Origin: an uncultured delta proteobacterium
GTDB lineage: Bacteria; Desulfobacterota; BSN033; UBA1163
DNA: 64,000 nucleotides
NCBI GenBank assembly: GCA_963827685.1
Contig: CAWHBU010000002.1
Span: forward strand, 768,001-832,000
Direction: 5' to 3'
Shown here: positions 1-52,965 of the stretch, in pieces
How positions within the stretch are numbered: position 1 is the first letter of the stretch
Layout: every line of letters begins with the position of its first letter
Program-made: the position numbers and the translations under genes
Notes under the pieces: model-generated
Seen by the model: the letters and a program-made list of their open reading frames with translations, nothing else
The model's database searches: none
Told to the model about the DNA's origin: nothing

Positions 1-83
1 TATCCCTCTTTGATCAATATCACGGATAACATGTGTCTAAAACTTTCTTCGTCATCCACGATGAGAATGCGTTTAGGAATCAT
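1..83 (-). CDS. Response regulator receiver N-terminus (probably sigma-54 activator type), truncated by window edge
   Basis: Hand translation from ATG at 83: MIPKRILIVDDEESFRHMLSVILIKEG; GGAGG RBS upstream; downstream of a histidine kinase. Not in the ORF track. Confidence 0.8.
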   Translation of the reverse strand, partial: MIPKRILIVDDEESFRHMLSVILIKEG

Positions 84-95
84 TAATGCCTCCTC

Positions 96-244
96 TGGAA
101 TAATGGAATATTGGAAGACTGGAATATTGGGTGAAAAAAATTCAACCCAACACTACAGCAGGTTTTCCATTTCTTTTCCCATCATTTCATCTTTTTCTCT
201 TCACATCCTTCCATTATTCCAATATTCCATAATTCCATCTTTCA
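96..244. repeat. Inverted arrays of degenerate 8-mers (TGGAATAW x4 at 96-131; NNNTTCCA x4-5 at ~206-244)
   Basis: Read directly: tggaataa tggaatat tggaagac tggaatat tggg ... ttcca tta ttcca ata ttcca taa ttcca. Confidence 0.85.
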
Positions 245-655
245 TTGTTGAAAGGTGTCTTCCCACTGGCCACCTTTTTGCTTTCGTTGGAGCGATTCAA
301 TCAATTTCAACAATTGGTTTTCGACCTTGTAATGGAGCTCGTCTAAGTCTTCATATTCTTCCTTTGATATTTGATCTGCTTGCATACAGCTTTCGTAGCA
401 GGAATGAAACTCACCACACGAGCCAAGAGCAATGTTCAAATGGTTCAGATACTCTTTTAAACTCCTTCGGCAGTAGCCTTCTGAAATATTTCTTGATATG
501 CTGTGAGCAGCATCAACGCTATTTGCCGAAATCTTCTTCAGTTCAAAGGGAAACTTAGCAAAGACCTTACAAGCCAGGATGTAAAGTAAAACTGAATCTT
601 TCCATACGTTGAGCCTCTTAAATCCCCTATTGACGTTTTTCCTTTCAGTATTCAT
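242..655 (-). CDS. Four-helix-bundle protein (23S rRNA IVS protein / bAvd-like family)
   Basis: Motifs GFKRLNVWK, SISRNISEGYCRRS, YLNHLNIALGSCGE; 137 aa. Confidence 0.9.
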   Translation of the reverse strand: MNTERKNVNRGFKRLNVWKDSVLLYILACKVFAKFPFELKKISANSVDAAHSISRNISEGYCRRSLKEYLNHLNIALGSCGEFHSCYESCMQADQISKEEYEDLDELHYKVENQLLKLIESLQRKQKGGQWEDTFQQ

Positions 656-772
656 CCCATTATTCCATCATTCCAGTCTTCCATCATACCATTCTTTCTT
701 TTTCTATTATTCCATCTTTCTATCCTTTTTCTTTTCCATAATTCCACCATTCCATTATTCCACTATTCCAGT
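645..772. repeat. Degenerate 8-mer array (NNNTTCCA, ~10 units) upstream of the four-helix-bundle gene
   Basis: ccattattccatcattccagtcttccatcatacca ... ttccataattccaccattccattattccactattcca. Confidence 0.85.
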
Positions 773-776
773 TTCT

Positions 777-2450
777 TTAGGCTGCTGGAAAATAGATCTC
801 GAAGCTTGTTCCTTTTCCAAGCTCGCTCTCCACCCTTATTTCCCCTCCCAATGACTCAACAATCTTTAAAGAAATCGATAAACCAAGGCCTGTTCCTTTA
901 TCCGGAGCTTTGGTTGTAAAAAAGGGGTCGAAAATATTTTCTAAATCTTCTTTTTTGATTCCACTCCCTGTATCAGAGATTCGGACCTTAACGAGTCGGT
1001 CCCCTTTTGAGAATTTTGTTGAGAAAGCAGAAAGGGGATCGGATTTCCGCAAATAAGAATAATCGGATTCCATCGGATCACTTTTACGTCTCGGAGGATA
1101 AGGGCGTTGAAACCAGTCGTCATATAAATGTTCCATGACGTGTCCTTCCGTTTGAATTTGTAATATACCGCCATCTGGCATGGCATCGATTGCATTTAAA
1201 ATGATGTTAATAATAACTTGAGAAAGCTGCGATTCGTCCCCTTTGATTACAGGAAGGTTAGACTGCAGGTCTAATCGGGTTTCGATATTTTTAAAATCTT
1301 TTTGATACGATAATAAAGAGAGGGTGCTTTCAACGATCTTATTGATTTCCACCTCACGTATTTCCAATTTAGATGGCCTTGCAAAATCCAGAAGCTCCCG
1401 GACGATTTTGTTAATCCGTTCTATTTCTTTTTCGATCCTCTTCAAATAGTCCTTCGATTCGTCACGATCCATCCCTTCCTTCCTCAAAATGTTCGTATAT
1501 CCCAGAATGGCCCCTAAAGGGTTCCCCACTTCATGGGCCACACCTGCGGCGAACCTTCCAACGGAGGCGAGTTTCTCTGTACGGATCAGTTCTTCCTGGG
1601 TTTGCTTCAATTGGTTGTTGGCTAATTCAAGGGATTCCAAATATTTTTCTAAACTGTCTTGATTTTCTTTCAACCTCTCGATCATTCGATTGAAAGACCC
1701 TATGAGCTGTCCTATCTCATTTTTGCTGGTCACTTCAATTTTTTGGCTGAAATCCCCGTTACTGATTCTTTTTGTCAATCGGACAAGATCTTTAACGGGT
1801 TTAACTAAAACCCGCGAAAGTAAAAAGCTCCCGAAAATGATCAGGACAAAGGCGTCGAAGAGGACGGTGATTAAAATGATTCTTTGAGATTCTAATAAAG
1901 TTGTCATTAAATCCCCGATGAAAACCTCCATTTGAATACCGCCAACAATTTTCCCATGATGCCATAAGGGGGAGTAAAGTATCATTTTTTGATAATGGGT
2001 TGATAAAAAGTTCCCTGATTTTTCAATTTCAGCTCTTGATTCACCTGATTGGATAGCCTTTTGCAGAAACGGATCAGTAGATCGTCTATTGATCAACTCT
2101 GATTTCTTGCTGGCAATGATATCGAATTGCATATCTACAATCAATAACTCATAGAATCCCTTCCCTTTCGCATACGTGTAAATAAAATTTTGAACCTCTT
2201 TCTTAGCAAGAGGGTTATCTAATGTAAATTCCTTTTTATCGCGTGATATAAAATCAACGATGGTTTGGAAATCTTGGACCATCCTCTCCCCATACTTGAT
2301 CTTTTCTCGGAGGATATTCCTCTCAACGATCTTGGACATCGTAAACCCGATTAACAGGATTGCGGCCAACATGAGAAAGGATATATTAATGATGACTTCT
2401 GTCCTGAGGCCTAAATTTATTTTTTTAAATAACCAAAAACCCTGTTTCAT
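777..2450 (-). CDS. Membrane sensor histidine kinase (HAMP, HisKA, HATPase; NtrB-like)
   Basis: Two TM segments, HAMP, H-box AGVAHEVGNPL, N-box NIILNAIDAM, DTGSGI, FDPFFTTK, GTGLGLSI. Confidence 0.95.
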   Translation of the reverse strand: MKQGFWLFKKINLGLRTEVIINISFLMLAAILLIGFTMSKIVERNILREKIKYGERMVQDFQTIVDFISRDKKEFTLDNPLAKKEVQNFIYTYAKGKGFYELLIVDMQFDIIASKKSELINRRSTDPFLQKAIQSGESRAEIEKSGNFLSTHYQKMILYSPLWHHGKIVGGIQMEVFIGDLMTTLLESQRIILITVLFDAFVLIIFGSFLLSRVLVKPVKDLVRLTKRISNGDFSQKIEVTSKNEIGQLIGSFNRMIERLKENQDSLEKYLESLELANNQLKQTQEELIRTEKLASVGRFAAGVAHEVGNPLGAILGYTNILRKEGMDRDESKDYLKRIEKEIERINKIVRELLDFARPSKLEIREVEINKIVESTLSLLSYQKDFKNIETRLDLQSNLPVIKGDESQLSQVIINIILNAIDAMPDGGILQIQTEGHVMEHLYDDWFQRPYPPRRKSDPMESDYSYLRKSDPLSAFSTKFSKGDRLVKVRISDTGSGIKKEDLENIFDPFFTTKAPDKGTGLGLSISLKIVESLGGEIRVESELGKGTSFEIYFPAA

Positions 2451-2451
2451 A

Positions 2452-3219
2452 TCATCCCCTATATCGCAGGTACCAGAATATTATTTCATTTTGGTAAAAA
2501 AGAGCGATCACAGCGCCAAGTGAAAGAAACGGTCCAAAGGGTATAGCATATTTAAAATCCTTTCCTTTCAAGACCATAATGATAATACCAGTAATAGAAC
2601 CAATAAGTGAACTTAAAAAAATGGTTAGGATGACGGCTTTCCATCCCAAGAAACCGCCGATCATAGCTAGCAATTTGACATCTCCTCCTCCCATCCCTTC
2701 CCTTTTAAAAAGCCACTGATATATAGTCGCAACTAAAAAGAGACTCCCACCTCCCAATAGTATCCCTAATAAGGAATTGAGAAAAGTGATCTGGGGGATA
2801 ATTAGAGAGGCCAATAGACCCGCTCCTATCCCTGGAAGGCTGATCACATCCGGAATGATCTGGTGATAGAAGTCGATAACGGTGATCACAATCAAGGCGG
2901 AAAGAAAGGCAAAATAGATCAGATAGCCCACCGAAGGCCCGAATCTCAAGAAGAGAAGAAAGGATCCCAGGGCCGCGATCCCTTCCACCAGCGGATACTG
3001 AATGGAAATGGAGGCCTGGCAATCGCGGCATTTCCCTTTGAGGACAAGGTAGCTGATGATCGGGATATTGTCGTAGAACCGAATCGGGTGCCCGCACCGC
3101 AGGCAGTGGGACCCCGGATAGACAATAGATTCCTCCTTCGGCAGCCTCGCAATGCATACATTCAAGAAACTGCCGACCATCGCTCCAAAAAGGATTGAGA
3201 AAATATTAACCATGGGCAT
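2452..3219 (-). CDS. pilD: Prepilin peptidase / N-methyltransferase
   Basis: GSFLNVCIARLP, CxxC...CxxC zinc motifs, GMGGGDVKL, IPFGPFLSLG. Confidence 0.97.
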   Translation of the reverse strand: MPMVNIFSILFGAMVGSFLNVCIARLPKEESIVYPGSHCLRCGHPIRFYDNIPIISYLVLKGKCRDCQASISIQYPLVEGIAALGSFLLFLRFGPSVGYLIYFAFLSALIVITVIDFYHQIIPDVISLPGIGAGLLASLIIPQITFLNSLLGILLGGGSLFLVATIYQWLFKREGMGGGDVKLLAMIGGFLGWKAVILTIFLSSLIGSITGIIIMVLKGKDFKYAIPFGPFLSLGAVIALFYQNEIIFWYLRYRG

Positions 3220-17109: not shown

Positions 17110-17138
17110 GCATAGGGCATAGAGCATGGGGCATAGAG
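17110..17138. repeat. 7-mer array GCAT(A/G)G(A/G) x4
   Basis: gcatagg gcataga gcatggg gcataga; inverted partner at 17536-17557. Confidence 0.85.
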
Positions 17139-17142
17139 TTCT

Positions 17143-17499
17143 TTACGTCAAAGACCCCTTGAAATTGGTTATTTGTCGGCAAAGACGATCAAGATGTATT
17201 AAAAATACATCTAAACGTTCGTTTGAGATAAGATTCCTTTTCTGCAATAAAATCAGTATATTAGCATTTTCAAAGGTAGACCTTCGGGCCATATTCAAAT
17301 ATTGTTTGAACTCTTTCTTCGAAGAAGAGCCTGAACCCTCCGCTATGTTATTTGACATAGACATCCCTGCTCCCCGTAATTGTTCCGCAAATCGATATAG
17401 TTTTTTCTCTTCAAGTTCATCAGCAATGTCAAATAGTTCGTCTGCAATCTGAATCGCCAATTGTCAGATTTTCAGATCCTGAAATCTAAATTTCGCCAT
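17143..17499 (-). pseudogene. Four-helix-bundle protein with in-frame TGA at codon 12
   Basis: GAGGGAG RBS, ATG 17499: MAKFRFQDLKI*QLAIQIAD...QLRGAGMSMSNNIAEGSG...ARRSTFE; the family normally has Trp at the stop position. Confidence 0.85.
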
Positions 17500-31939: not shown

Positions 31940-31973
31940 AATAGCAAAGCGCATGGAGCATAGCGCATAGCGC
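31940..31973 (+). repeat. Heptamer array (GCAAAGC GCATGGA GCATAGC GCATAGC)
   Basis: Same unit family as 17110-17138 and 18599-18624. Confidence 0.7.
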
Positions 31974-32082
31974 AAAAAAAAGACAGTAGTTCAAGGACCA
32001 TTGATTGAATTTCAACGGGTATTATTTTAGTATAAAACCGAGGCCGAAATCAACCCTTAATGCAATTTTTATACTTTTTTCC

Positions 32083-46390: not shown

Positions 46391-46439
46391 TTGTTCATTG
46401 TTCATTGTCCATTGTCCGTTGTCCATCGTTCATTGTCCG
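46391..46439. repeat. Tandem 7-mer TTGTYCR x7
   Basis: ttgttca ttgttca ttgtcca ttgtccg ttgtcca tcgttca ttgtccg; short inverted arm at ~46361-46379. Confidence 0.9.
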
Positions 46440-52854: not shown

Positions 52855-52965
52855 CAATGTCAAATGTCAAAGCTCAAATGTCAAGTCAAATCCAAAGCCC
52901 AAATATTAGAAATTCTTAATTGTGAACTTTGACATTCATTTGACATTTGAATTTTGAAATTTGGG
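52855..52965. repeat. Inverted heptamer arrays (CAAATGT-like / ATTTGAC-like) between guaA and dnaE
   Basis: caaatgt caaagct caaatgt ... caaagcc caaat | tttgacattc atttgac atttgaa ttttgaa atttggg. Confidence 0.8.

Follow-up and report, generated by a model that had tools for sequence, protein, structure and literature searches.

A four-helix-bundle gene with its own short tandem repeats as a candidate mobile cassette in a two-component operon

How does a small four-helix-bundle (4HB) gene, wrapped in arrays of an 8-nt repeat, come to lie between a sensor histidine kinase and its response regulator, and what ties the gene to its repeats? The question is raised by a stretch of 64,000 nt from an uncultured delta proteobacterium (GenBank assembly GCA_963827685.1, contig CAWHBU010000002.1, positions 768,001 to 832,000), here called the window, in which the element in question occupies positions 95-771, about 677 nt of the minus strand. 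It has a regular anatomy of gene and opposed repeat arrays, related genomes hold filled and empty versions of its site, its protein and its repeat are conserved together, and the protein is under purifying selection. We lean, though not strongly, towards reading it as a transposase-less module in which a protein of the PF05635 family co-evolves with its own repeats, the latter being putative binding sites, and which generalises those intervening sequences (IVS) of 23S rRNA that bear an open reading frame (ORF).

The cassette and its insertion site

The evidence for an insertion comes from the kinase-regulator junction of related genomes. An orthologue of the kinase was found in 25 other genomes and is followed by the regulator on the same piece of DNA in 23 of them, which together with the window gives 24 loci. 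The spacer measures at most 44 nt in 16 of the 24; in five close relatives among those 16 it is 20-24 nt long and contains little besides the ribosome-binding site. Removing positions 95-771 from the window leaves a spacer of 20 nt, like that of the empty relatives, and this argues for an insertion. Because the minus strand carries every gene of the window's first 5 kb, the features are given in transcript order, with arrays as called by Tandem Repeats Finder (TRF):

5124-3220, minus strand: gene of a TPR protein, first in operon order
2452..3219, minus strand: prepilin (type IV leader) peptidase gene with A24_N_bact and Peptidase_A24 domains, upstream in the same operon
777..2450, minus strand: sensor histidine kinase gene with HAMP, HisKA and HATPase_c domains, its stop codon 6 nt ahead of the cassette
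652..770, minus strand: upstream sense array of TGGAATNN units (TRF period 8, 15 copies at 67% match), extending to the start codon
242..655, minus strand: intact gene of the 4HB protein, 137 aa (PF05635 / TIGR02436)
209..238, minus strand: short sense array of four TGGAATNN units right behind the 4HB stop codon (TRF period 8)
131..208, minus strand: spacer of 78 nt, the loop of the 3' hairpin, with a small UUGGGU/ACCCAA helix and a U-rich loop
96..130, minus strand: terminal antisense array, the 3' arm of the cassette (TRF period 8; four TTCCA-type 8-mers on the transcript)
89..93, minus strand: ribosome-binding site GGAGG of the regulator, intact and 2 nt past the last repeat unit, with a similar site at the empty junctions of relatives
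1..83, minus strand: start of the sigma-54-type response regulator (ATG 83-81; Response_reg and Sigma54_activat domains), which extends past the window edge and has 459 aa in the full genome

This layout confirms the original prediction of a 4HB gene set between kinase and response regulator among periodic 8-mer arrays; counted here, nine exact TGGAA cores precede the gene, four units follow it and four are in antisense. The nine cores belong to an upstream array whose two TGGAATNN blocks (~656-691 and 734-770) flank a degenerate middle. Units of the terminal array read NNATTCCA on the transcript and TGGAATNN on the plus strand. A pattern of three units (TGGAANNNTGGAANNNTGGAA, at most one mismatch) matches ten times in the 64-kb window and all ten matches fall within 96-770, with 0.02 expected from dinucleotide shuffles. 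A sigma-70-like promoter was not found in positions 1-1000, nor a terminator-like site within the cassette; together with its orientation along the operon, this suggests that the cassette is co-transcribed with the kinase and regulator genes. The ORFs nearest to it carry neither transposase nor reverse transcriptase domains.

Other elements occupy the same junction elsewhere. In three congeners (G010, G006 and G014) an insert of 560-725 nt carries a PF05635 gene (57 bits) other than that of the window, which in G006 a stop interrupts; the insert is flanked by a pair of inverted repeats of about 20-26 nt, not by tandem arrays. The same inverted repeats lie within 151 nt in a genome of another genus (G023), where the gene is absent. 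Inserts of this second cassette kind are found at L022:3163-3887, L024:921-1500, L025:3160-3719 and L030:3160-3310; an extra stem-only copy stands behind the gene in L022, and that in L030 is gene-less. Three further genomes have other junction inserts, of 81-241 nt. Among such inserts are one of 241 nt with a GACACG-type hexamer run (L027:3175-3415), a GC-rich palindrome (L032:2959-3333) and one of 81 nt (L029:1420-1500). The kinase-regulator spacer seems to collect elements of the hairpin type. A quick tree of the kinases places filled beside empty genomes in the sister pairs G010/G004 and G006/G012, each with a support of 100, from which it follows that the junction was gained or precisely cleared several times.

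The cassette of the window also has close counterparts. In G014 the operon has a 4HB gene of 89% identity at a position two genes farther upstream, between the TPR and peptidase genes, a junction with zero spacer in the window. Five TGGAATNN units precede that gene and two follow it, then come a spacer and five antisense units (this locus and L052 were counted as one observation). Another genome (L117) holds a TGGAATNN cassette at the very same kinase-regulator junction. Its 4HB gene, interrupted by a stop, is 91% identical over the matched part, whereas the kinase and the regulator are 64% and 77% identical to those of the window, so that the cassettes are more alike than their hosts. This likeness suggests that the cassette was either transferred into one and the same site or lost, precisely and more than once, from others.

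The original prediction had also suggested a transposase-less cassette, and the comparison of relatives bears this out: filled and empty alleles of the junction both occur and the gene is not fixed there, the spacer that is empty in relatives is taken by another 4HB cassette in congeners, and the same cassette sits elsewhere in the operon of G014. The cassette is a self-contained, transposase-less unit that is gained, lost or moved. Contigs from four DNA runs broke only at array edges (95/96, 132, 237, 762 and 770), and many of the joints stemmed from loci elsewhere that have these arrays. A metagenome contig of run X3, in which position 84 is joined to 806 and the cassette region skipped, was considered as an empty allele of this strain. 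It was rejected, given an identity of ~92% and an unread intervening stretch; probably it comes from a relative whose site is empty or filled differently.

Protein and repeat across genomes

The 4HB protein matches TIGR02436 over profile positions 1-109 of 109 (E 7e-19; 68.1 bits, cut-off 24) and PF05635 over positions 1-104 of 106 (E 3e-18; 66.3 bits, cut-off 33.8). PF05635 is the sole domain found in it; an HUH/Y1 transposase domain was not found, and the PADLOC models of anti-phage defence gave 0 families at E <=0.01. A profile built from 14 copies of this genome matches the PDB entries 2RLD and 2GSC, with five chains per entry, at E 1e-27 to 6e-28. Two relatives are described as pentamers: S23p of Xanthomonas as a homopentameric toroid (PMC4990558), and Avd as a pentameric barrel that is similar to S23 proteins and that binds a stem-loop of RNA beside its own gene region (bioRxiv 10.1101/2023.10.23.563531). 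Compared with the 89%-identical congener copy, the 4HB gene has a dN/dS of 0.045, an estimate that indicates strong purifying selection on the protein.

The host genome (5.2 Mb, 14 contigs, 94.5% complete) contains 18 matches to TIGR02436, three with an internal stop and one short. Of its 864 arrays with a TRF score of at least 40, 28 lie within 350 nt of these 18 genes, where three are expected from the share of the genome, an enrichment of about 9-fold. Repeat units are specific to the copy: array listings give 15 distinct units of 6-9 nt among the 18 copies, and close paralogues have related units. The two flanks of a copy match each other in inverted orientation. In 16 of the 18 copies their complementarity exceeds the 95th percentile of flank pairs taken from different copies (mean 15.4 vs 8.3 +/- 1.6). 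Similarly, 22 of 27 loci pass this test across the phylum (one best locus per genome from 27 other genomes, two of 29 loci having been dropped for short flanks), so that the expected enrichment of repeats around genes of the family was found at both scales. All 18 copies are oriented like the preceding ORF and 16 like the following one, and in 15 of the 18 upstream arrays, counted by eye, G exceeds C on the sense strand. The window holds a second TIGR02436 copy at 17149-17466 (minus strand) with an in-frame TGA and its own GCATAGG-type heptamer array at 17110-17138; the near-identical GCATAGC is among the commonest gene-less families of the genome.

To follow protein and repeat beyond the genome, the single protein was used as a query and gave 80 loci in named genome records, a sample of this subfamily only. 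By record title they come from Thermodesulfobacteriota, Bacteroidota, Ignavibacteriota, Calditrichota, Nitrospinota, KSB1, Balneolota, Planctomycetota, Kiritimatiellota and others. A search of the named genomes with an alignment of 14 sequences found no conserved stretch. Setting aside five repeat copies and two truncated loci left 73 loci, of which 50 have at least 60% identity. An upstream 8-periodic sense chain of at least three units is present in 40 of these 50, a downstream antisense chain in 39, and both in 31. Their unit logo reads T (.94), G, G, A, A (.95), T (.75), R, N, with GGA fixed by the anchoring of the chains. Synonymous sites are saturated, with a dS of 1.18 for the closest pair and incomputable values for four more distant pairs; the conserved repeat core therefore cannot be a remnant of recent common descent. 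Most often an array has about four units, with four in 29 of 65 upstream chains, three to five in 49 of the 65 and a downstream mode of three to four, and TRF copy numbers peak at 4-5.

The unit also varies in its fifth base. Among the 23 more distant loci it is G in 13, A in six, T in three and mixed in one, and a sister clade of the protein has TGGAG in place of TGGAA. A quick tree was built from 51 intact proteins, with 17 of the 80 loci omitted by eye as partial, interrupted or repeat copies and 13 more dropped for stops, few units or mixed units. On it the fifth base, taken as A, G or T, changes three times; shuffling gives a mean of 12.2, and none of 200 shuffles was as low. The clade with G is separated from the A type by 18 alignment columns. 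An independent G locus on a long branch, L106, shares the residue of the G clade at two of these 18 columns, its own residues 8 and 89. For A, G and T units, position 8 holds I/V, K and M, and position 89 holds S, A and V, respectively. That these two residues may track the fifth base is suggestive, a lead that amounts to no code and concerns a single base position within one subfamily.

Six or seven near-identical copies (L086-L092, in two genome bins) were considered as a fresh transposition of the cassette and rejected: they are a truncated 4HB fragment, starting from residue 19, on an IS91-like element, just ahead of an IS91-type transposase ORF (Zn_Tnp_IS91, Y2_Tnp). The carrier element is 1.3-1.6 kb long and present in at least six copies in one long-read bin, with 99.3-100% identity.

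Apart from the cassettes, the host genome contains 437 orphan arrays of period 6-9 that lie away from 4HB genes. By a loose criterion, at most one mismatch, 212 of them resemble a cassette unit. Four of the seven commonest heptamer families are identical to the flank unit of a 4HB gene, which is far from chance given our own estimate of ~1170 heptamer classes. Orphans of the TGGAATNN family amount to 11 arrays that make up about eight hairpins, on four contigs and in short intergenic spacers, each built of 3-4 sense units, a loop of 30-60 nt and 3-4 antisense units; the loop bases GGGT...ACCC of the cassette are similar in these gene-less hairpins. Two inverted array pairs 500-660 nt apart and without a TIGR02436 match enclose other genes, an endonuclease-III-like ORF (named by eye) and an ORF of 138 aa.

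Several further families of arrays were noted in passing. For the 8-mer families AATTCCTC and AAGGGGTC, the assembly contains no 4HB gene whose flanks match. Arrays of 9-mers of the AACCCAATA type fill many spacers of two co-directional gene clusters (G000:C2:283835-303527 and G000:C4:792359-802096), some apparently lying inside ORFs, and the cognate 4HB gene (C2:294243) is in one of the clusters; this looks like local spread or a local regulon. In the window itself, arrays without an adjoining 4HB gene lie at 46391-46438, 52856-52904 and 31944-31974, and their units are TTGTCCA (6.9 copies), AATGTCA and GCATAGC.

Pairing of the arrays and relation to known elements

The original prediction held that the last array can pair either locally or with the upstream array, and both pairings are there: positions 96-124 are complementary to 209-237 over 29 nt at 90%, and positions 95-140 to 726-771 over 46 nt at 76%. 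The minimum-free-energy and centroid RNA folds both close the whole cassette by the far pairing, with a fold z-score of only -1.78 for the whole region. For the energies of whole flanks, RNAduplex was too noisy (matched mean -88, mismatched -77 +/- 13), and an ungapped complementarity score was used instead. At the variable unit positions 6-8, covariation between the arms is absent. In the best register these positions agree at 0.669 over 47 loci, compared with 0.654 +/- 0.015 for arms of different loci and 0.680 +/- 0.011 for shuffled unit order. Local hairpins of this genome (n=36) score 0.825 vs 0.808 for the shuffled-unit control, with 24 of 36 above it (Wilcoxon p 0.035). G:U mismatches show no clear excess over A:C, 107 vs 88 over three sets (18/18, 31/17 and 58/53). 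With neither covariation nor a clear G:U excess, the arms look like two opposed arrays of one motif and not like a maintained helix. Pairing across the 4HB gene is possible, and a sign of selection for it was not found in these comparisons; the part of the original prediction that made looping-out a selected function thus lacks support so far.

Among described elements, the closest are the ORF-bearing IVS of 23S rRNA. That of Coxiella burnetii is 428 nt long, contains an S23p ORF, has a 28-bp terminal stem cut by RNase III and carries three tandem GACAGAT heptamers ahead of the start codon, whose number varies between strains (PMC4990558). By citation in the same source, ORF-bearing IVS occur also in Leptospira and Brucella; their ORF often decays, and they are regarded as selfish elements of unknown origin. 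The likeness that the original prediction saw to IVS is thus real. Both have an ORF of the S23p/PF05635 family, a length of ~430-680 nt, tandem repeats before the start codon and complementary ends able to enclose the ORF in a stem, in the cassette 95-140 and 726-771. They differ in that the cassette lies between two protein genes of an operon and not in 23S rRNA (helix 25 or 45), that its arms are arrays of 4-15 8-mer units instead of unique inverted repeats, and that its gene is intact and under purifying selection, with gene-less hairpins of the same unit in the same genome. RNase III cutting has been shown for the IVS. The cassette is most likely an element of the IVS type that lies outside rRNA and has a cognate repeat system.

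Dispersed hairpins of this kind are familiar from repetitive extragenic palindromic (REP) sequences and REPINs, in which the single-copy gene of a REP-associated tyrosine transposase (RAYT) is flanked by its own repeat, gene-less inverted pairs are dispersed in intergenic spacers, and several families may share one genome. Here, too, the repeat of the cassette borders its gene and recurs across the genome as inverted pairs that lack a gene, which gives the cassette a REP/RAYT-like organisation without a known enzyme: unlike RAYT, the 4HB protein has no HUH/Y1 (IS200/IS605-like) transposase domain, and the arms consist of tandem units of 6-9 nt instead of a single REP of ~20 nt. Nor does it resemble an insertion sequence or a miniature inverted-repeat transposable element, having no transposase domain and no target-site duplication at 35 borders. 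With Avd it shares the small helical-bundle protein, but no reverse transcriptase adjoins the cassette, and the profile of this genome's copies did not reach the Avd chains in PDB at E <=0.01.

Short tandem repeats of a comparable size have been described in their own right. The TAACTGA-type 7-nt direct repeats in intergenic DNA of cyanobacteria and Beggiatoaceae are abundant and come in 2-6 copies near start codons, almost only as direct sets (one inverted), and their function is given as unknown (PMC4679880). In contrast to these short tandemly repeated repetitive (STRR) sequences, the cassette arrays occur in opposed pairs with a cognate gene, and the words 'four helix', '23S' and 'intervening' do not occur in that source, which accordingly ties its repeats to no protein of this kind. 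A full-text literature search, with subscription journals outside its coverage, found no paper linking the S23p family to flanking tandem arrays beyond rRNA; only the heptamers of the Coxiella IVS were described.

Mechanism, alternatives and significance

On the transcript the module opens with sense units, continues with the gene and a few more such units, and closes with a loop and the opposed array, all placed in a kinase-regulator gap of 20 nt. We propose that the repeats are binding sites of the 4HB protein, most likely as single-strand or hairpin RNA, by analogy with Avd. A candidate form of the RNA target would be (TGGAAUNN)4-5 or (UGGAAUNN)x5; one pentamer would correspond to an array of some 4-5 units. 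The same protein would act on the eight or so dispersed gene-less TGGAATNN hairpins. The arrays and any protein bound to them sit just ahead of the ribosome-binding site of the regulator, and an effect on its expression is plausible. The ORF-bearing IVS of 23S rRNA would then be the special case in which such a module landed in rRNA.

Several observations weigh against this proposal. Covariation of protein and repeat is given equally by simple co-inheritance of the cassette, and there is only one independent switch from A to G, that of L106. The fit of 4-5 units to a pentamer is loose: the modes are four units upstream and three to four downstream, and low counts are cut away by the TRF thresholds. 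With a pI of 7.6 (20 K+R vs 19 D+E), the protein is not basic. The families AAATTCC and AAATCCC, together 45 arrays (e.g. G000:C2:1190475-1190531), have no cognate 4HB gene in the 94.5%-complete assembly, and 138 of the 437 orphan arrays lie mostly within ORFs of at least 120 aa. The orientation bias is weaker beyond the host genome, with 49 of 67 copies oriented like the upstream and 60 of 69 like the downstream neighbour (80 loci, including the seven insertion-sequence-borne copies). Finally, neither a target-site duplication nor a common target motif was seen at the 35 cassette borders.

What else could explain the locus? An IVS-like RNA-processing module would put the RNA structure before the protein: the stem of opposed arrays would be cut by RNase III, which would free the 4HB mRNA and split the kinase and regulator messages. 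The predicted folds close the cassette by its outer arrays, the arms (46 nt at 76%, 29 nt at 90%) resemble the stem of 28 bp in the Coxiella IVS, where RNase III cleaves at the first tandem heptamer (PMC4990558), and the cassette runs with the operon with no promoter-like site found in 1-1000. We nevertheless consider this account unlikely, because the variable arm positions are no more complementary than the controls, local hairpins score barely above shuffled units, G:U pairs are in no clear excess, the fold z-score is low and a dN/dS of 0.045 argues that the protein matters. The absent covariation suits sites better than a helix, and it thereby speaks for an operator model, in which the 4HB protein is a regulator that binds double-stranded DNA, the arrays are iteron-like autoregulatory operators and the orphan arrays form a regulon. 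Such a model would also accommodate the co-conservation of protein and repeat, the orphan arrays in intergenic spacers and the 9-mer arrays clustered in many spacers around their cognate gene (G000:C2:283-304 kb). We judge it distinctly improbable: the excess of G over C on the sense strand of 15 of 18 upstream arrays hints at strand-specific use, the arrays lie between co-directional genes of an operon with no promoter-like site found beside the cassette, and Avd, the only relative with known biochemistry in the source available, binds RNA (bioRxiv 10.1101/2023.10.23.563531).

Two further explanations carry far less weight with us. An accessory of a reverse transcriptase, of the Avd type found in diversity-generating retroelements (DGR), would have its arrays made or copied by reiterative reverse transcription and would move via an RNA intermediate. 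The family is indeed related to Avd (bioRxiv 10.1101/2023.10.23.563531), and short tandem units with variable last positions might be seen as resembling templated reiterative copying. However, the genome has a single RVT_1 match for its 18 4HB genes, at C4:393223, while the cassette is on contig C2, and the ORFs nearest to the cassette encode neither reverse transcriptase nor transposase, which leaves this idea very improbable. Coincidence, lastly, would mean that short tandem arrays are merely common in the intergenic DNA of this genome. Common they are, with the 864 arrays mentioned above and 96 TRF rows (score at least 40, period 6-10) on contig C2 compared with two in an order-3 Markov simulation. 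The arrays beside 4HB genes are, however, copy-specific, matched between both flanks and enriched about 9-fold, and from phylum to phylum a given unit stays with the same protein. We give coincidence hardly any credence; the data already contradict it.

The transposase-less module of protein and cognate repeat thus remains our preferred reading, and it may be taken further. In a bolder version, which we put forward tentatively and regard as rather doubtful, PF05635 would be a large family of proteins that bind short periodic repeats in a sequence-programmable way. Its pentamer would read about five tandem units of 6-9 nt in RNA or single-stranded DNA, with a few residues (here 8 and 89) setting the unit. 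Gene and sites would then constitute a new class of mobile elements without an enzyme, which would seed the long-unexplained short tandem arrays of bacterial genomes, re-use the same operon spacers time and again and be ancestral to the IVS of rRNA.

The locus joins two old questions, the function of the S23p/IVS family, open since the 1990s, and the origin of short tandem repeats of the heptamer type. It offers a defined protein together with a defined 8-nt repeat, a natural variant of the unit (TGGAAT vs TGGAGT) and two candidate specificity residues, as well as natural filled and empty sites, including a 20-nt spacer in which two different cassettes have settled. Lying between kinase and regulator, a cassette could uncouple the expression of these two genes in the host. 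If a simple rule of repeat reading proves true, the family would provide a compact programmable nucleic-acid binder.

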